DNA of 64,000 bases. Origin: an uncultured Gammaproteobacteria bacterium. Lineage in GTDB: Bacteria > Patescibacteriota > Microgenomatia > Woykebacterales > RBG-16-39-9b. Below, one piece after another: positions 1,994 to 48,572 of this stretch. The stretch is taken from assembly GCA_965231125.1 (NCBI GenBank), contig OZ246414.1, forward strand, positions 209,739-273,738, given 5' to 3'. Under the pieces are notes generated by a model. The model made no database searches, had not been told where the DNA came from, and worked only from the letters and a program-made list of their open reading frames with translations. How positions within the stretch are numbered: the stretch's first letter is position 1; every line of letters begins with the position of its first letter. The position numbers and the translations under genes are program-made.

Positions 1994-2434
1994 TTGAAGA
2001 AACTGCTTGTGAACGATAATCAAATCAAAACCACAAACTGGACCGCCTTTTTTCTCATCGTTGCTTTCCTGATTTTAGTGCCCGCACTTATTAGTTTCCT
2101 CTACTTAAGCGGCAAGGGTACGGAAAATGTAAAGAAGGAAACAAAAGTTAGCAGGATAGCCGGTCAGGCTCGGGTTTCCATCACCAAAGCCGGTTTTACC
2201 CCTTCTACCATCCAGATAGAGAAGGGCGTCCAGGTCACCTGGACCAACAACGACAGCTCCCCCCATCGAGTAGCGTCTGATCCTTACCCAACTCACACCA
2301 GTTTACCAGCCCTAGATTCTGAGATTCTAGCCCCCAAGGAGTCTTTCAGCTTTATCTTTGAGAAAATGGGCACCTTTACTTATCACGATCACCTCAAGCC
2401 ATTAAAGATTCGGGGGACTGTAATTGTCAAATGA
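1994..2434 (+). CDS. cupredoxin-fold (plastocyanin-like) protein with a degenerate copper site, membrane-anchored
   Basis: TM helix followed by TWTNNDSSPHRV...GTFTYHDHL. It is a paralogue of the 43648..44082 cupredoxin, but the Cys and Met copper ligands are replaced (HCSIH..M becomes HDHL..I). TTG start. Confidence 0.6.
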   Translation: MKKLLVNDNQIKTTNWTAFFLIVAFLILVPALISFLYLSGKGTENVKKETKVSRIAGQARVSITKAGFTPSTIQIEKGVQVTWTNNDSSPHRVASDPYPTHTSLPALDSEILAPKESFSFIFEKMGTFTYHDHLKPLKIRGTVIVK

Positions 2435-4521
2435 TGAATTTTGTTAGAGAACCGATTAATTTAAGAGATTACCGTCACCTAACTTCAATAGTCGTCGTGG
2501 CGTTTATTTTTGTTTCAGTCGTTGTTACAGTAAGTGGAGGTTTGAAACTTGAGGAGACAACTCGTAAACCAAAAGCAGCTAATCCATTAGAAACCATGAC
2601 CACCCCAGAAGGTACCGTTATAAACATTTATACAACCGGCGTGACGGCTGCGCAAATGTACAAATATTTGAAGGATAATGGCCTGGATTATGCAAGAGTT
2701 GGATCAGAAATGCGGGTAGACGTGGTTCCAACAGGTTTCACCACCGCGAGTGTTGGTTGCGGGTCTAGCGGCTCGACTTACGTTGCTAACCCCCCTGCAT
2801 TGCAGTTTAACATAAACGATATACTTTCTCACCCCAATTATTCTGTCGCCTACGAGTATTCTCACGCTTGGTTTACTTATTTTGCCTGTACTGCCTGGAA
2901 AGGTTCCTGGGACGAGTATCTTAAAGCCCGCAACCTCCTCGGTGATCCTCGACTTAATACGGATCTGTGTTGGACAGTTAATGACGGTCTGAGCGGCAGT
3001 GATTATGTAAAACTTTTTGCTCTGCCAGATCCTGGAGTTATTGTTGCCAAATGCCCCCCGGATATTCCGCTTGCCTCAGATGTGCCGGGTCTTAAAACTT
3101 TCTTAACCACAACCTGGAAGACCGGTTATAGTGGGACGGATACAGTTGCACCAACGGTCTCTATCAGACAACCGTCTAATAATGGTAATGTTTCTGGAAC
3201 TTCAGTCCAGATTTCTGCCAGTGCGGCGGATAATAATGGGGTTGCCTATGTTGAGTTTTATATCGATGGTGCTCTGAAACGGTTGGATGCTTACGGTTTC
3301 AATTTTGATTATACTTGGGACTCGACAAAAGTCGCTGACGGAGCACATGCAATCACTACCAAGGCCTATGACGCCGCTGGAAATACTGCATCGGCATCTA
3401 TTAATGTAAATGTTAATGGTTCAGGTGGGGATACCCAGGCACCCACTGTAACCATTACTTCTCCAGCGAACGGTGCTTCAGTTTCTGGGAATGTGAATGT
3501 AAATGCCAACGCTACGGATAATGTTGGGGTGACCAAAGTCGAGTTCTCTGTAGACGGGCTCTTGAGGGCTACTGATACAACCTCACCATACGGATTTACT
3601 TGGGATTCGACTACGGTTACAAATGGTACTCGCAATCTTTCTGCTAAAGCATTTGATGCGGCAGGTAATGTTGCTTCCGACACGATTTCTGTCACTGTGG
3701 CAAATGGTGACACCCAACCCCCATCAACACCCTCGGGTCTGACAGCTAGTGCAGCTAGTGCTACCTCAGTTAATCTCTCCTGGACCGCCAGTACAGATAA
3801 TGTTGGAGTCACTGGCTACTGGATTGTCAGGAATGGGGTCACGATTGCTTCTTCACTCACCAACAGTTACACTGATAATTCTGTTTCACCCGCAACCACC
3901 TACAACTACCAAGTAATCGCCTTTGATGCGGCTGGTAATACCTCTAGTACTTCTAACACCGCCACAGTGACTACCCCGGCTGCTCCGGATACTACACCAC
4001 CCTCCGCACCAACTAATCTAGTGGCCACGCCTGGTTCTTCTTCTCAGATTAACTTAAGCTGGACTGCCAGTACAGATAATGTAGGTGTGACTGGCTATGA
4101 TATTTACAGAAACAGTACTAAGATTGCCAAGGTGACTACAACAAGTTTTGGGGACACAGGACTGGCCGCCTCCACCACTTACAGTTACTTTGTCAAAGCA
4201 ATGGATGCGGTTGGTAATACCTCCAGCCCATCTAATACAGCTACTGCTACTACACTTAATCCTTCAATAAAAGGCAACATCACTGGAACCGTATTTAGCT
4301 CTGCTGGTGGGGTTGTAGCTGGGGCGAAACTTACTATATTTGTTTCTGGAAGCAAGAGAACATATTACACTTCTTCCTTTGGGATTTATTTTATCGACAG
4401 CATTCCCGTAGGTACTTACGATCTTCGGGTGTCAGCCCAGAGGTTTGCGCAGCAACAAGTGCAAGTTAGTGTGATAGCTAATACTACGACTACAAAAGAC
4501 ATCACTTTACAGAAAAGATAA
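2431..4521 (+). CDS. large cell-surface protein: TM anchor, novel N-terminal domain, 2 Ig-like plus 2 FN3 repeats, and a C-terminal carboxypeptidase-regulatory-like beta-sandwich
   Basis: ATGA overlap with the upstream gene. Ig-like repeats contain VEFxVDG...YGFxWDST...AxDAAGN. FN3 repeats contain LSWTASTDNVGVTGY. The C-terminal segment GTVxx..G..V.GA.L reads like CarboxypepD_reg. Confidence 0.8.
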   Translation: MMNFVREPINLRDYRHLTSIVVVAFIFVSVVVTVSGGLKLEETTRKPKAANPLETMTTPEGTVINIYTTGVTAAQMYKYLKDNGLDYARVGSEMRVDVVPTGFTTASVGCGSSGSTYVANPPALQFNINDILSHPNYSVAYEYSHAWFTYFACTAWKGSWDEYLKARNLLGDPRLNTDLCWTVNDGLSGSDYVKLFALPDPGVIVAKCPPDIPLASDVPGLKTFLTTTWKTGYSGTDTVAPTVSIRQPSNNGNVSGTSVQISASAADNNGVAYVEFYIDGALKRLDAYGFNFDYTWDSTKVADGAHAITTKAYDAAGNTASASINVNVNGSGGDTQAPTVTITSPANGASVSGNVNVNANATDNVGVTKVEFSVDGLLRATDTTSPYGFTWDSTTVTNGTRNLSAKAFDAAGNVASDTISVTVANGDTQPPSTPSGLTASAASATSVNLSWTASTDNVGVTGYWIVRNGVTIASSLTNSYTDNSVSPATTYNYQVIAFDAAGNTSSTSNTATVTTPAAPDTTPPSAPTNLVATPGSSSQINLSWTASTDNVGVTGYDIYRNSTKIAKVTTTSFGDTGLAASTTYSYFVKAMDAVGNTSSPSNTATATTLNPSIKGNITGTVFSSAGGVVAGAKLTIFVSGSKRTYYTSSFGIYFIDSIPVGTYDLRVSAQRFAQQQVQVSVIANTTTTKDITLQKR
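3142..3708 (+). repeat. intragenic tandem duplication encoding 2 Ig-like domains (about 96 aa each)
   Basis: Two consecutive units, 3142..3429 and 3430..3708, with a conserved protein pattern. Confidence 0.7.
3709..4254 (+). repeat. intragenic tandem duplication encoding 2 FN3-like domains (about 93 aa each)
   Basis: Units 3709..3987 and 3988..4254 share DTxPPSxPxxL...LSWTASTDNVGVTGY...AxDAxGNTSS. Confidence 0.7.
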
Positions 4522-12785: not shown

Positions 12786-12821
12786 ATTGCCTACACATAT
12801 TTTAAGTGCTAGAATAGACCC

Positions 12822-13247
12822 GTGAATCCCATTTTTCTTGCCATTCTAGCTGCACTTTCCTACGGTATTTGGACCGTTTTCCATAAAATAGCCTCTACTA
12901 ATATAGATAAATTCCTTGGCTCGATGATTTTACAAATTGCTGCCTTTTCCACAGCGGCGGTTTTAGTTCTTTACATGAAATTTACAAAGCATAGTTTCCA
13001 GATTACCCCAAAGGGAGTTCTTCTTGTTATTTTAGCAGGTATTGCAGCGTCTTTTATAGACTTATTAGCGTTGGCTGCTTACTCAAAGGGTTTATCAATA
13101 TCTGTAGGAGGTCCTTTAATCATCGGTGGTGCTGTTGCAATTGCCGCTATTTTTGGTTTTGCCTTTGGTGATGCAATAACCCCCCCCAAACTTTTTGCGA
13201 TTGCTCTAATTGTTGCCGGGGCCTCAATCCTTGCTAAGTTCTCCTAA
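12822..13247 (+). CDS. small DMT/EamA-like membrane transporter (single EamA domain)
   Basis: 141 aa, four predicted hydrophobic helices, GTG start. Confidence 0.55.
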   Translation: MNPIFLAILAALSYGIWTVFHKIASTNIDKFLGSMILQIAAFSTAAVLVLYMKFTKHSFQITPKGVLLVILAGIAASFIDLLALAAYSKGLSISVGGPLIIGGAVAIAAIFGFAFGDAITPPKLFAIALIVAGASILAKFS

Positions 13248-44609: not shown

Positions 44610-44734
44610 GCCGACGCCGATTATTTCCGGGGAAAATTTTTTCAGGTTTTGAATAATAATCGGTTGCCTCCAAGTAAAGATTAGTAACAGTTAATTATAT
44701 TTGGAGTATTTTGAAAAAAGCAAGCTTTATTAAA

Positions 44735-44760
44735 CCGGCTGGCCTTGATGGACTCCTCAC
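44735..44760 (+). repeat. island repeat family (D2)
   Basis: CCGGCTGGCCTTGATGGACTCCTCAC, similar to the 5' parts of repeats A and B. Confidence 0.5.
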
Positions 44761-44912
44761 TAGATTTGTGATATAATTCATTTATTGACAATTTAATATT
44801 TACTGGACGTTGAAAGGCATCTAGTAACTGGAGTTGAATGTTTAAGTAAGTTGTCATTGCGTGACCCGCCCTGAAATCTTGGACATCGAAACCAGTTGTC
44901 GGATGCCTTTTT

Positions 44913-45263
44913 TTGTATCTTAATCTTAACAAAATTATGATAGATTATAAGTTTTTACCGAAAGATTTAAAGCAATACCTCGGGCCCAATTACAATTGGA
45001 TAATTGCTTCCGGAGAAAGTAAGTTAACTGCTAAAAATCAGACCAACGATTTACGTTCGATTCTTAATTCAATTGGGAGATTTAACTACGCAGATTTTAG
45101 AAGGTTCATTCAAATAAAACGGGAATTAGGTGAATCTAATCTATATTTAAACTCCCGTATTTTGGGAGCGAGGCAATTTGCGCAGTTTTTGAAACAACAA
45201 GAATTTGCTGTTGACGCGCAGCTTTTAACCTACCCTATCTTCAAGCCTGAGTTAGTTCATTAG
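44913..45263 (+). pseudogene. 5' fragment of a tyrosine recombinase/integrase (N-terminal SAM-like core-binding domain only)
   Basis: About 116 aa matching the integrase N-terminal helix pattern (LTAKNQTNDLRSILNSIG...FRRFIQ...LGARQFAQFL). The catalytic R-K-H-R-H-Y domain is absent, and the ORF stops 12 nt before repeat A. Confidence 0.55.
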
Positions 45264-45275
45264 GTATTTGAATTT

Positions 45276-45357
45276 CTGGTTGGCCTTATTGGACCGCACT
45301 TCGTTGAAACTTCGCGCGGCTGGCGATTTGGAGGAACCTCTGGCCTCAATTAAGTTC
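45276..45357 (+). repeat. island repeat family, long form (A, ~82 nt)
   Basis: About 80% identical to B over its length (GGCCTTATTGGACCGCACTTCG...GGCGATTTGGAGGAACCTCTGGCCTCAATTAAGTTC). Confidence 0.7.
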
Positions 45358-45391
45358 TTTTGATTTTTCTCCTATACACCTAAACCATTTC

Positions 45392-45847
45392 TTAGGTTGC
45401 TAGCTCTTTACTAAATTTTGTGAAAATTCTTCTAATTTCCCTTTCAAGCCTCTCCTGTGTTATTCCGTTTCGATTGGCTTCTACAACAATAATAGCTAAT
45501 TCGTAAAGAGATTCTCTAGGAATTGTGAAATCAACCCCATGAGCTAATAAAAATACATGTGTAGAAAGAACGGCTGTTCTTTTGTTACCTTCAAATAAAG
45601 GGTGTTCGCAAGCTATCTTAATAAAATAGGCAACTGCGGCGTTTAAAACTGTGGGTTTTACATACTTATTAACAATAGATAGTTGAACTGAGCCAAGAAT
45701 GCTTTCTAGTTTCCCGGGGGTTCTACGGTCGAAAGGTTCAGTTGGGTCGCCAAGACTAATCTGCAAGTTCTCGTAGGCGGTCTTGTAAATCTCTACTGTT
45801 AGATAATTCTTTGGGGGTAGAGTCAGATTCTTTATCATATTTTTCAA
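45392..45847 (-). CDS. doc: Doc (death-on-curing) Fic-family toxin
   Basis: Fic/Doc motif HPLFEGNKRTA and N-terminal GDPTEPFD..PGKLESILGSVQ. Confidence 0.8.
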   Translation of the reverse strand: MKNMIKNLTLPPKNYLTVEIYKTAYENLQISLGDPTEPFDRRTPGKLESILGSVQLSIVNKYVKPTVLNAAVAYFIKIACEHPLFEGNKRTAVLSTHVFLLAHGVDFTIPRESLYELAIIVVEANRNGITQERLEREIRRIFTKFSKELAT

Positions 45848-45926
45848 GCAGCTCGTAAGTTTTGCGGTATTTTTTTATGCTGTGATTAATATTTTTTTGG
45901 ATTATCTTTTTCTCGGAAGTTGTCAT
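45756..45926 (-). CDS. candidate antitoxin partner of Doc (56-aa unlisted ORF)
   Basis: ATG 45926 to TAG 45756, MTTSEKKIIQKNINHSIKKYRKTYELLEKYDKE... It lies immediately upstream of doc and overlaps it out of frame by about 90 nt. No family assignment. Confidence 0.3.
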   Translation of the reverse strand: MTTSEKKIIQKNINHSIKKYRKTYELLEKYDKESDSTPKELSNSRDLQDRLRELAD

Positions 45927-46090
45927 ATGTAGCAGTATACTACAATTCTACAAATAAAGTGAAAATCAAGCAACACTTGACAGGTTTATGCTTTATCACC
46001 AAAGTGCTAGAATAACACCTTGCAGGTGATGTTTTTTGACAAAATAACACTCTAGCGAGTGATGTTTTCTCATCAATTAATGATTCGAAA

Positions 46091-46356: not shown

Positions 46357-46381
46357 TTGGTCGGCCTTGTTAGGCTCAGAC
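46357..46381 (+). repeat. island repeat family, short form (C)
   Basis: TTGGTCGGCCTTGTTAGGCTCAGAC. Its first 15 nt are identical to the start of B, and it contains a GTTAGGC core. Confidence 0.65.
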
Positions 46382-46412
46382 AGTTGGCGGGGCCCAGTGG
46401 CGAGCTCAGTCC

Positions 46413-46778
46413 TCAGCTCACCGCTTTCTTCACGAGCGCGCCGATCTTTGCCTCTTCGGCGGCAGTCAACCCCTTCAGCGCGAAGGCGATTGGCCACATG
46501 TGGCCTTCGTCGAGGTTCGCCTCGTCGTTGAAACCGAGCGTCATGTACCTCTCCTTGAACTTCTCCCCGCCGCGGAAGAAGCAGATAACCTTGCCGTCCT
46601 TGGCATACGCGGGCATCCCGTACCAGACCCTCGGCGAGAGGGTTGGCGCGCTCTCTTTGATGATAGCATGGAGCCGCTCGCCCATGGCGCGATACGGTCC
46701 CGGCATCGCGTCGATCGCCGCGAGCACCGCGGCCTCGCCGTCGGCCTTCTTCGTCGCCTTCTTGTCGACTACTTGCAT
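46413..46778 (-). CDS. DUF1801/YdhG-like protein, strongly GC-rich (probable horizontal acquisition)
   Basis: About 60% GC against a ~40% background. DUF1801-like pattern ([25 protein letters not shown]...[17 protein letters not shown]). Confidence 0.7.
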
Positions 46779-46929
46779 ATAGGGTTCCTTTCTACTGCGA
46801 TTAATATTTTTGTAAAACCACGTTAATTGGTATTAAAGTTATTGTCAATGGTTTTAGTATGAGTTCCAAAAACGTTACTATCCCCACAGAAAAAGAAGTT
46901 TCTGTCGAAAATATTTAGCTTCAAAAACC

Positions 46930-47015
46930 TTGGTCGGCCTTGTTGGACTACACTTCGCTAAAGCTCGCGTAGCAGGCGATTTCGAGGAACCTCTGTCCGC
47001 AATTGAGCTCGTTAG
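46930..47015 (+). repeat. island repeat family, long form (B, ~86 nt)
   Basis: TTGGTCGGCCTTGTTGGACTACACTTCGCTAAAGCTCGCGTAGCAGGCGATTTCGAGGAACCTCTGTCCGCAATTGAGCTCGTTAG. Confidence 0.7.
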
Positions 47016-47027
47016 TTAAAACACAGC

Positions 47028-47720
47028 TTATTCAGATTTACCGCCCGTTGTTAAAAGCCGGTCGTGATTATATCGGAGTAACATTATCCCAATAAGTAGA
47101 GCAAAGCCAAATAAATACCCGCTAATTACATCGGATAACCAGTGTAGGTGTAGATAGATACGAGACGGGCCAACTAACAACACGACAGTTAACTCGACTA
47201 ATAGAAGCATTAAACGAAGTTTTTTATTTTTGATGTACAACAAGGTAAGAATTGCTAAATAGCCAAAGAAAACAACGTATGAAGCAGTATGGCCCGAAGG
47301 ATAACAAGTCTCGTGCCAAAAAGTTTTTTGAAGAAAGGAAAGATTGAACACCTCGTGAAAGGAAACAATTTTGCTAAAGGGAGAAGCTGGGCATTCTACT
47401 CGAAAGATGAGTTTTACCACGAATTCAGTTAAAAACCAGCCGGAAAAGCTCAATGGAAGCATTTTTGCTTCAAAATTATTCTTCTTGCGACGGAAATAAA
47501 CAAACAGCCATATTAAAACACCTACAATTGGCACATAGAGAAAAGCCAGAAACCTAGAAACATAATAAAGGAGATTGTTCAGTGAGAAAGGTAGGTTTTG
47601 GTTAAGATAAACGTCAATCGGTGTTAGTTGCCCACTCATTACTATAAAAGTGAATACGACAAAGGCCACAAGAAGCAGGCAAAAAATAATTGAATAGGTG
47701 CTGTACTTTAGAGAAAGCAT
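47028..47720 (-). CDS. PAP2-family membrane phosphatase
   Basis: PSGH and SRxxxxxHxxxD motifs (YPSGHTA; SRIYLHLHWLSD); 6 TM. Confidence 0.75.
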   Translation of the reverse strand: MLSLKYSTYSIIFCLLLVAFVVFTFIVMSGQLTPIDVYLNQNLPFSLNNLLYYVSRFLAFLYVPIVGVLIWLFVYFRRKKNNFEAKMLPLSFSGWFLTEFVVKLIFRVECPASPFSKIVSFHEVFNLSFLQKTFWHETCYPSGHTASYVVFFGYLAILTLLYIKNKKLRLMLLLVELTVVLLVGPSRIYLHLHWLSDVISGYLFGFALLIGIMLLRYNHDRLLTTGGKSE

Positions 47721-47810
47721 TTGATGCTATTTTGGATTTTACACCAAAAATGCTAGAATAACACCCAACGCTACTAAAGTTATGCTGGGCGATCCCACAT
47801 TTCACCAAGG

Positions 47811-48236
47811 CTATTTATGATGCTTTTGAAGAAATTTTTTTGGGGTTGCTATCTGAATTTTTGGAATTATCCTTTGCGATTCTTCAGTTAGAATGTGTTT
47901 TCTATCCAGACTAACTAAAAAATCTGACTTGGATTCTTGGGCTGAAATAAGAATGTGCCGATCTTTTTGATCTATGTCTTTTAATTTCTCAAGCTTTTCT
48001 TCCTCCGGAAAAGGTAAAATTTTGAAGTAATCTTCTTCCAGCCAGTTTAGAAACAGTTGATATTTTTCTTGATTTAATTTCCTTCTGATAGCTTCTTCGG
48101 ACTCTGCCACCACACCTTCATTTATCCAACCGTCAAGTTTCCCTTTCTCTATCAGATTAATTATTTCAAAAGAGCCGCCGGTTTGTGAACCAGCGGCAGC
48201 AACAATTACAGAGGAGTCTAGGAAAACCTTTATCAT
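47811..48236 (-). CDS. PIN-domain toxin (VapC-like)
   Basis: N-terminal VFLDSSVIVAA and acidic residues consistent with a PIN fold. ATGA overlap with the upstream antitoxin. Confidence 0.65.
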   Translation of the reverse strand: MIKVFLDSSVIVAAAGSQTGGSFEIINLIEKGKLDGWINEGVVAESEEAIRRKLNQEKYQLFLNWLEEDYFKILPFPEEEKLEKLKDIDQKDRHILISAQESKSDFLVSLDRKHILTEESQRIIPKIQIATPKKFLQKHHK

Positions 48237-48454
48237 TCTAACTTATCTTCTTCAAGAAAACTCTCTATCTCTTTATCAGTGTATTTCCGCAAATATTTGG
48301 TTGGAATACTTTTCAGCGGCTTAATTATGAGTTCGCCTTCTTTAATACTTACATCAAGGAGAGTATTTTCATCTATCTCTAGTTGTTTGCGAAAGGTCGC
48401 AGGAATAGTAATTTGGCCCTTTGGTAATGGTTTTACAACTTCGGAAGTCTTCAT
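48233..48454 (-). CDS. AbrB/MazE-type antitoxin (VapB-like)
   Basis: SpoVT/AbrB swapped-hairpin pattern KGQITIPATFRKQLEI. Confidence 0.65.
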   Translation of the reverse strand: MKTSEVVKPLPKGQITIPATFRKQLEIDENTLLDVSIKEGELIIKPLKSIPTKYLRKYTDKEIESFLEEDKLE

Positions 48455-48498: not shown

Positions 48499-48572
48499 TG
48501 GTCGGGGAGGAGGGAATCGGACCCACGATACCGCACCCCCAGCGCGGTGTATTACCACTATACTACTCCCCG
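48499..48572 (-). tRNA. tRNA-Pro (anticodon GGG), CCA encoded
   Basis: 7-bp acceptor stem CGGGGAG/CTCCCCG, D-arm GTAT-AGTGGTA-ATAC, anticodon loop CTGGGGG, discriminator A plus CCA. One T-T mismatch in the T-stem and C55 in place of U. Confidence 0.75.

Follow-up and report, generated by a model that had tools for sequence, protein, structure and literature searches.

Integrons carry an integrase gene (IntI) and an attI site at the head of an array of mobile cassettes, and the attC repeats that bound these cassettes show R''/L''-L'/R' inverted symmetry and folding. Islands targeted to transfer RNA (tRNA) genes consist of compositionally deviant foreign DNA placed directly 3' of the tRNA gene, with direct repeats that share the terminal nucleotides of the tRNA. 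The pdif modules of Acinetobacter plasmids are small, often toxin-antitoxin modules associated with XerC/XerD sites; these sites are 28-bp 11-6-11 imperfect palindromes in alternating orientation. The BOX elements of streptococci (boxA-boxB(n)-boxC) have a conserved module at either end and an optional one between, and are dispersed genome-wide. The locus described here lies in a 64-kb stretch of DNA (the window in what follows) from a genome of the Candidate Phyla Radiation (CPR) with ~40% guanine plus cytosine (GC), which carries rpoB/C, ribosomal protein operons and recA-recX-rny and has a Candidatus Woykebacteria metagenome-assembled genome as its nearest named relative. It comprises a small open reading frame (ORF), named ORF108, together with a family of direct repeats, several gene cassettes and a tRNA-Pro gene. 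With moderate confidence in the account as a whole, we read ORF108 as an intact small gene for a probable integrase-derived DNA-binding domain, and as the outermost unit of a tRNA-anchored cassette array.

The plus strand of the window holds an ORF at 44913-45263 that encodes 116 amino acids (aa) if counted from a TTG codon. The sequence-only reading had taken it for the N-terminal fragment of a tyrosine recombinase, truncated by recombination at the repeat that follows (repeat A) or by insertion of a cassette. Its coordinates were confirmed: the stop codon occupies 45261-45263, and repeat A begins at 45276, 12 nucleotides (nt) further. The internal ATG at 44937 is the start in all orthologues (MIDYKF..., 108 aa). 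The TTG at 44913 falls within the U-run of a conserved upstream hairpin; therefore, the real product probably has 108 aa and the eight extra codons before the ATG are likely untranslated. The gene and its upstream elements are as follows.

44937-45263, plus strand: ORF108, an intact gene whose 108-aa product has four predicted helices, probable remote homology to the SAM-like/core-binding N-terminal domain of tyrosine recombinases and no catalytic domain.
44801-44912, plus strand: leader, an ultraconserved 112-nt long imperfect hairpin ending in a U-run, directly 5' of the ORF.
44749-44777, plus strand: sigma-70-like promoter candidate (TGGACT, 17-nt spacer, TG-extended TATAAT), a consensus match only.

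Thirteen members of the ORF108 family were compared (10 clusters at 90% identity, two representatives at 50% identity and one genome locus). All of them, down to about 50% identity, are 102-108 aa long and share the C-terminal tail LLTYPxF. In three loci (L007, L128 and L132), divergent members terminate at the identical residue and have neither an L nor an R repeat module adjoining them, and in another locus (L129) the L module begins 79 nt past the ORF108 stop codon, compared to 12 nt in the window. Wherever synonymous divergence (dS) could be measured, the pairwise ratio of nonsynonymous to synonymous divergence (dN/dS) was 0.06-0.30 across the whole length of the gene. Uniform length, a common C-terminus and these low ratios therefore establish ORF108 as an intact and maintained stand-alone gene under purifying selection, not as debris, and the 12-nt spacing to repeat A in the window is incidental. 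The gene is restricted to one Woykebacteria-like lineage of the CPR.

These same data bear on the idea that ORF108 is a pseudogene, an integrase remnant from which recombination at repeat A, or the entry of the Doc cassette, has recently removed all but the N-terminus. The proximity of the stop codon to repeat A fits that idea, as do the presence of nothing but a core-binding-type domain that ends at about the inter-domain linker, the missing catalytic domain downstream and the existence of N-terminal-only integrase fragments of similar size in Bacillaceae genomes. However, the length and the C-terminal motif are the same in all 13 relatives, including those in which no repeat follows or the repeat lies 79 nt off, selection has acted on the entire gene, and ORF108 comes with a conserved promoter and leader of its own. 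Furthermore, a search of 1.84 billion representative proteins with the family profile revealed no full-length relative, and in place of the full-length orthologue that had been sought in related genomes, L001 (a Woykebacteria relative), L129 and the other ORF108 loci all carry the 102-108-aa form. We consequently regard recent truncation as very improbable, and ORF108 should not be annotated as an integrase pseudogene. Since ORF108 ends where the inter-domain linker would be, any truncation may have been ancient and followed by domestication, its product then being kept by selection. As a separate observation, one 140-aa protein (P0013) is a chimeric ORF in which a DUF1016 N-terminal domain continues into the C-terminal 37 residues of an ORF108-family member, the ORF108-family gene of that other genome having been interrupted or recombined at about residue 67.

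The upstream region of ORF108 is strongly conserved. The leader is 91-97% identical in four loci, whereas the coding sequence is 77-86% identical, with dS up to 1.8. Folded as RNA, it has a minimum free energy of -39.6 kcal/mol (z -3.55; none of 200 shuffled sequences folds as well), and its consensus fold holds 37 pairs. There is one copy per locus and none in the divergent subfamily of 102-104 aa. Rfam searches of the leader returned no match, either at gathering thresholds or at E<=5. The TGnTATAAT element of the promoter candidate is conserved in the window, L001, L129 and L132, and its -35 hexamer (44749-44754) overlaps the 3' end (TGGAC) of an L copy at 44735-44753. According to the mechanism that we propose, this promoter would drive transcription of ORF108 through the 112-nt leader with its hairpin and U-run. 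The leader may serve as an attenuator or an autoregulatory site; it could also be an unknown cis-regulatory RNA, a small RNA or a protein-binding site. A reading of the leader as minus-strand coding sequence (an 83-aa ORF at 44681-44932) was rejected, as the differences between copies include an insertion or deletion in the apical loop. We also note that L modules might supply outward promoter elements for cassettes on the plus strand.

The relation of ORF108 to tyrosine recombinases is remote. Among the 13 family members, Phage_int_SAM_1 was the commonest Pfam family below threshold (4 of 13), and XerC (7 of 13) and XerD (6 of 13) were the commonest such families of NCBIfam. The family profile recovered P0017 at E 8e-4 in the search of representative proteins. 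This protein is a 116-aa 'site-specific integrase' with a bona fide Phage_int_SAM_1 domain (43.8 bits, E 3e-11) and shares 32% identity with ORF108 across 60 aa; when used in tblastn against the whole window, its sole match lay within ORF108 (45042-45194, E 3e-6). An hhalign comparison with an alignment of SAM-domain proteins matched helices 3-4 over 47 columns (P 9e-4). The AlphaFold2 model of ORF108 has four helices, and its top three Foldseek matches in the PDB were an archaeal Xer protein, the Brujita integrase and the Tn1549 integrase (E 0.5-4); in BFVD, seven integrases appeared within the top 24 matches. No competing family was seen to recur across methods. By this profile-based and transitive route, ORF108 qualifies as a remote homologue of Phage_int_SAM_1, and an origin from a SAM-like/core-binding domain appears quite likely from these comparisons.

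Several results weigh against this assignment. Every single signal of recombinase homology falls below curated or customary thresholds. The PF02899 gathering threshold (22.3 bits) is not reached by any family member, the best score being 17.9 bits (E 0.0038). The protein of the window itself has no match in Pfam, NCBIfam or PHROG, and the direct Phage_int_SAM search found nothing in Pfam at E<=10, so the domain assignment made in the sequence-only reading probably holds as a remote homology seen through relatives, profile, hhalign and Foldseek comparisons, not as a Pfam match. The hhalign probability is only 22.7%, and the Foldseek matches (E 0.1-4) were obtained with a model whose predicted local distance difference test (pLDDT) score is 66. 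In addition, residues 5-61 of ORF108 resemble a ~95-aa unit that is repeated three to six times in large uncharacterized proteins (P0014, 2299 aa; P0015, 776 aa; P0016, 623 aa; profile E 3e-6 to 6e-4); this unit belongs to no Pfam family and shares 31% identity with the ORF108 segment over 59 aa by BLASTP. Searches of PHROGs, PADLOC and PDB sequences gave nothing at threshold or relevant, and tblastn against phage and plasmid collections returned weak Maribacter phage matches only (E 0.4) and no plasmid match.

ORF108 could accordingly be some other small helical protein, for example a transcription factor or a partner of the leader RNA, carried in the array by chance, in which case its SAM signals would be noise from helical bundles. 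The lack of a match at curated thresholds or of a relevant PDB sequence, the 47-column hhalign match, the low-confidence structural model, the repeat units of unrelated large proteins and the occurrence of ORF108 without repeats in L128 and L132 are all compatible with that view. It nevertheless has to face the agreement of six independent methods (the profile match to P0017, Pfam, NCBIfam, hhalign, Foldseek with PDB and Foldseek with BFVD) on a single family and on one region of the protein, helices 3-4, while no rival family recurs. We consider an unrelated origin unlikely.

A core-binding origin does not make ORF108 a recombinase. The gene ends after 108 aa and has no C-terminal catalytic domain (PF00589, active site R-K-H-R-H/W-Y); because this domain is absent, ORF108 stands outside the recombinase family, and it is also below the Pfam SAM_1 threshold. 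That the catalytic domain is missing, as the earlier reading had stated, was borne out by the complete window: there is no tyrosine recombinase-like ORF across the 64 kb, and tblastn with integrase fragments matched the N-terminal part of ORF108 only. An alternative downstream frame likewise yields no full-length integrase, the plus strand 3' of ORF108 being antisense to a Doc/Fic gene. Without a catalytic domain, the ORF108 protein cannot cut or join DNA and therefore cannot itself recombine the repeats. The product is most probably a stand-alone descendant of a tyrosine recombinase core-binding domain that stops in the equivalent of the inter-domain linker, and it may act as a sequence-specific DNA-binding protein, a regulator or an accessory factor. 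Our most economical guess is a DNA-binding accessory or regulatory protein, possibly acting on its own leader.

The second component of the locus is the repeat family, which is built from a 19-nt L module (TTGGTCGGCCTTGTTGGAC), a middle of ~6 to 57 nt and an R module (AGGAACCTCTGGCCTCAATTAA); some copies consist of L only and lack the middle, and a loosely conserved stretch of ~45 nt follows the R module. All four copies in the window (starting at 44735, 45276, 46357 and 46930) are on the plus strand within 2.3 kb, and no further copy was found elsewhere in the 64 kb. Those at 46357-46375 and 44735-44753 are additional to the copies listed in the sequence-only reading. The copies and the tRNA gene beyond them are as follows.

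44735-44753, plus strand: degenerate L copy (ccGGCTGGCCTTGATGGAC) with two mismatches to the 17-nt core, the outermost repeat and left boundary of the ORF108 unit.
45276-45360, plus strand: repeat A, with L at 45276-45294 (three mismatches), a 37-nt middle and R at 45332-45353; a conserved extension runs to about 45395.
46357-46375, plus strand: L-only copy (TTGGTCGGCCTTGTTAGGC), directly adjoining a high-GC cassette.
46930-47013, plus strand: repeat B, with a perfect L at 46930-46948, a middle and R at 46985-47006.
48499-48572, minus strand: tRNA-Pro(GGG), whose 3' end (plus strand TGGTCGG...) faces the array, the proposed anchor or primary attachment site.

Repeats A and B are 80% identical over the 54-nt seed family, in an alignment that spans CTGGTTGG to about 45360. 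The 17-nt core has six matches compared to 1.3 expected (none of 100 shuffles reaches six), and the R module has two compared to zero expected. Members of this repeat family are also present in L001, in L129, an ORF108 locus with a full L, middle and R at the matching position 5' of its ORF108, and in eight metagenome loci. The latter were recovered by a 17-mer scan of metagenome contigs that returned at least 120 matching stretches, mostly chance matches in unrelated genomes (e.g., L037, which is not from the CPR); the eight real arrays include seven new arrangements, and L048 duplicates L001. One 6-kb CPR contig carries five L copies, and the copies of each locus are all on one strand. No convincing repeat families of their own were found in L007, L128 and L132.

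Repeats of this kind do not behave as folded sites. DNA folds of A, B and C on both strands were no better than those of shuffled sequences (z +0.65 to +1.93 for A and B), revealing no attC-type hairpins, and RNAalifold produced only weak, G-U-rich pairing between L and R in which all pairs are invariant. The L module has one GTTRRRY-like heptamer (GTTGGAC), which lacks a partner and lies 5'-terminally in the conserved unit. Searches of Rfam with the repeats (at gathering thresholds and at E<=5) gave no match; the tRNA was the only match found. Scans of IMG/VR with L, R, the leader and ORF108 gave chance matches only, in high-GC or unrelated contigs, with both modules on no contig, and no candidate for a phage attP site emerged from scans of viral contigs, phages and plasmids.

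The repeats were also considered as a small coding region. Nine of the 11 full copies hold one open frame from a TTG, CTG or ATG first codon of L to a stop just after R (e.g., window 46930-47019, L001 9908-9964 and L088 3482-3544), with a middle whose added length is 0, 30, 39 or 48 nt and products of the form LVGLVG...EPLAxIKLF*. This preservation of frame is curious. The coding interpretation was rejected all the same, as third codon positions do not vary in L, the frame is shifted in two copies, a start codon is missing from some, and other copies comprise L alone.

The units that lie between the repeats are small cassettes. In the window, these are the following, listed from the side of ORF108 to that of the tRNA gene.

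45392-45926, minus strand: Fic/Doc toxin gene (45392-45847; Fic/DOC Pfam E 4.5e-7) with an overlapping 56-aa ORF.
45756-45926, minus strand: the 56-aa upstream ORF, presumed antitoxin by its position only.
46376-46780, minus strand: DUF1801 cassette with a gene at 46413-46778 (Pfam DUF1801), at 63% GC in a genome of ~40% GC.
47028-47720, minus strand: PAP2 phosphatase (Pfam PAP2, 9.7e-15), in the tRNA-proximal cassette or cassettes.
47811-48236, minus strand: PIN toxin (PIN_3, 2e-9), likewise tRNA-proximal.
48233-48454, minus strand: MazE/AbrB-type antitoxin (MazE_antitoxin, 9e-10), likewise tRNA-proximal.

Comparison of arrays from different genomes showed where the cassettes begin and end. 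A ParE-Phd pair occurs in four contexts, and in these the homology begins at one L module and ends at the next. The DUF1801 cassette lies between L modules also in L001 (9199-9926) and L064, with about 85-90% nucleotide identity and 53-57% GC there. In the window, its high-GC stretch begins directly after the L module and ends at the DUF1801 start codon. Since L modules mark the limits of homology for both cassettes, ParE-Phd and DUF1801, in different contexts, they are cassette boundaries. Overall, the arrays contain toxin-antitoxin pairs (Doc, PIN-MazE and ParE-Phd), DUF1801 and PAP2. ORF108 lies inside the array in the three closest genomes, and there (window, L001 and L129) the gene and its leader are together flanked by L modules. 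The window and L001 share the same downstream layout: ORF108, variable cassettes, tRNA-Pro and then recA-recX-rny-ymdB-hup.

Several further observations concern the cassettes. The DUF1801 gene of the window looks like a recent horizontal transfer from a high-GC donor. In an independent assembly of the same genome, a Logan contig (L164, SRR6155509) breaks off near window position 46435, where the DUF1801 cassette begins just past the L copy at 46357; this break may reflect strain heterogeneity of cassettes or an artefact of coverage or GC. In the divergent subfamily, an ORF108 homologue is again near a DUF1801 gene (L007 10001-10655, convergent with 2 nt between the genes; L128 9738-11334, ~0.8 kb apart), with no L or R repeats detectable in either, which hints at a recurrent neighborhood. 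Finally, a motif of the type AA(A/G)TGCTAGAATA(A/G)(A/C)CCC that resembles a TG-extended -10 box (repeat family D4) is shared by two cassette intergenic regions (46002-46041 and 47738-47766) and one distant site (12804-12843).

The array is anchored at the tRNA-Pro(GGG) gene, which lies 0.6-1.6 kb from the nearest L module in five independent loci: the window, L001 (11113-11187), L010 (2885-2962), L057 (6628-6701) and L088 (4094-4167). Its 3' end faces the array in all five and reads TGGTCGG on the array strand, with a preceding T in four of five. The terminal CCGACCA of the tRNA is thus the start of the L module (TGGTCGG, after the leading T of L). On the far side of the tRNA there is a conserved block with a membrane protein, an RDD protein and recA. 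The 3' end of a tRNA gene fits the classical type of target of tyrosine integrases, and the copied stretch TGGTCGG is compatible with a 7-bp overlap region, though short.

Under the mechanism that we propose, cassettes would enter by conservative site-specific recombination, catalyzed by a tyrosine-type integrase encoded elsewhere, with the crossover probably placed within the TGGTCGG shared by the 3' end of the tRNA and every L module. A circular cassette bearing an L-middle-R site would recombine, within TGGTCGG, with the 3' terminus of the tRNA gene. Every cassette would then start with CCTTGTTGGAC (plus middle and R) and stop just before the next TGGTCGG, and the tRNA would remain intact. 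ORF108 would be the oldest unit, being farthest from the tRNA and having the most degenerate flanking L modules. The arrangement of cassettes observed agrees with this model of insertion at the tRNA end.

Three findings count against such a mechanism. The identity with the tRNA covers just 7 nt, and a rough estimate places a chance match of this kind at about one in 10 comparisons; the L module lacks the inverted-repeat core typical of tyrosine recombinase sites; and neither the window nor any array-bearing locus yielded an integrase. The repeats could instead be regulatory elements or elements of the BOX, repetitive extragenic palindromic (REP) or miniature inverted-repeat transposable element (MITE) type, with the cassettes swapped by homologous recombination after DNA uptake and the repeats and the tRNA/recA flank serving as anchors. 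Conserved ends with an optional middle do recall the pneumococcal BOX elements, and this alternative accommodates the missing recombinase, inverted-repeat core and significant hairpin, the weak and invariant L:R pairing that offers no evidence of covariation, and the overlap of the L end with a -35-like hexamer. Yet the copies are clustered (four in 2.3 kb and none elsewhere in the window) and all point the same way, their positions match the limits of shared cassettes exactly, and each array found lies 3' of this one tRNA gene, whose terminal 7 nt recur in it. Moreover, 19 nt is short for RecA-dependent exchange. Elements of this type, with exchange by homologous recombination, appear a rather unlikely explanation, and we prefer site-specific insertion at the tRNA end. 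In a separate part of the window, two direct repeats at 3780-4253 (279-nt spacing, 71-74% identical) fall within the gene of a 696-aa surface protein (2431-4521); they are probably tandem fibronectin-III/Ig-like domain repeats and are ordinary.

It had been proposed from the sequence that the repeats are recombination sites used by the enzyme family to which ORF108 was assigned. Cassette boundaries and the tRNA-Pro anchor lend this proposal support where the sites are concerned; ORF108 is weak evidence for the enzyme, because a protein without a catalytic domain cannot use them itself. Furthermore, ORF108 relatives occur without nearby L or R repeats in L128 and L132, L007 has one degenerate L-like match only, about 1.9 kb downstream of its ORF108 relative, and arrays exist on contigs where no ORF108 was seen. 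Consequently, there is no obligatory linkage between gene and repeats, and a functional link between them seems doubtful. Bolder still would be a CPR-specific, integron-like capture platform in which the tRNA-Pro 3' end corresponds to attI and L-middle-R to attC, the latter used as double-stranded unfolded sites, and in which ORF108, a domesticated core-binding domain, recognizes these sites or its own leader and targets or gates a recombinase encoded elsewhere. If true, such a platform with ORF108 would constitute a split or trans-acting tyrosine recombinase system, but we judge this scenario improbable.

The genomes of CPR bacteria (Patescibacteria) are tiny, and the ways in which these organisms gain new genes are poorly understood. 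The array exchanges toxin-antitoxin pairs and a clearly foreign gene of 63% GC between genomes, and a repeat-bounded, tRNA-anchored array would provide a concrete and testable mechanism of gene capture for the radiation. Our literature searches turned up no account of arrays like these from CPR bacteria. A core-binding-type domain maintained as a separate gene under selection, with a leader more conserved than its coding sequence, would also be an unusual reuse of a recombinase module. Like the N-terminal domain of tyrosine recombinases (PF02899; XerC/XerD, TIGR02224/TIGR02225), ORF108 has ~100 residues, and its low-confidence model shows four main helices; the likeness is concentrated in helices 3-4, and integrases are the best structural matches. 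It differs in that it stands as a gene of its own, has been kept at 102-108 aa by purifying selection and lacks the catalytic (RHRY) domain.

In the way it works, the array resembles integrons and tRNA-linked islands, yet it fails defining features of both, because it has no IntI, no folded attC and no element-encoded integrase. In the case of pdif modules, the likeness lies in small modules, often of toxin-antitoxin genes, with short recombinase-type sites in varied contexts. However, the 19-nt L is non-palindromic and all L and R copies are co-oriented. BOX elements share with our repeats the conserved left and right modules and the optional or variable middle, but the copies described here are clustered, co-oriented, located at cassette limits and anchored to a tRNA gene. 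Integrons and the present locus both have arrays of mobile cassettes bounded by repeats (here with ParE-Phd and DUF1801), the repeats being related, co-oriented, ~60-130 nt long, and conserved at the ends with a variable middle; in both, the cassettes are short, mostly of one or two genes, rich in toxin-antitoxin genes and found again in different genomes, and the L module contains a GTTRRRY-like heptamer. In contrast to integrons, a tRNA-Pro gene takes the place of IntI and attI at the array head, the repeats lack the inverted symmetry and folding of attC, the GTTRRRY-like motif sits at the wrong end of the conserved unit, and the cassette genes have both orientations and their own promoters. 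Finally, tRNA-targeted islands differ in that the units of the array are 0.5-1.6 kb long and encode no integrase (the catalytically void ORF108 at the distal end being all there is), and in that the repeats also contain ~100 nt of conserved sequence other than that of the tRNA. A possible likeness to such islands lies in the compositionally deviant foreign DNA that sits in tandem units directly 3' of a tRNA gene, with direct repeats that match the terminal nucleotides of the tRNA over only 7-8 nt.

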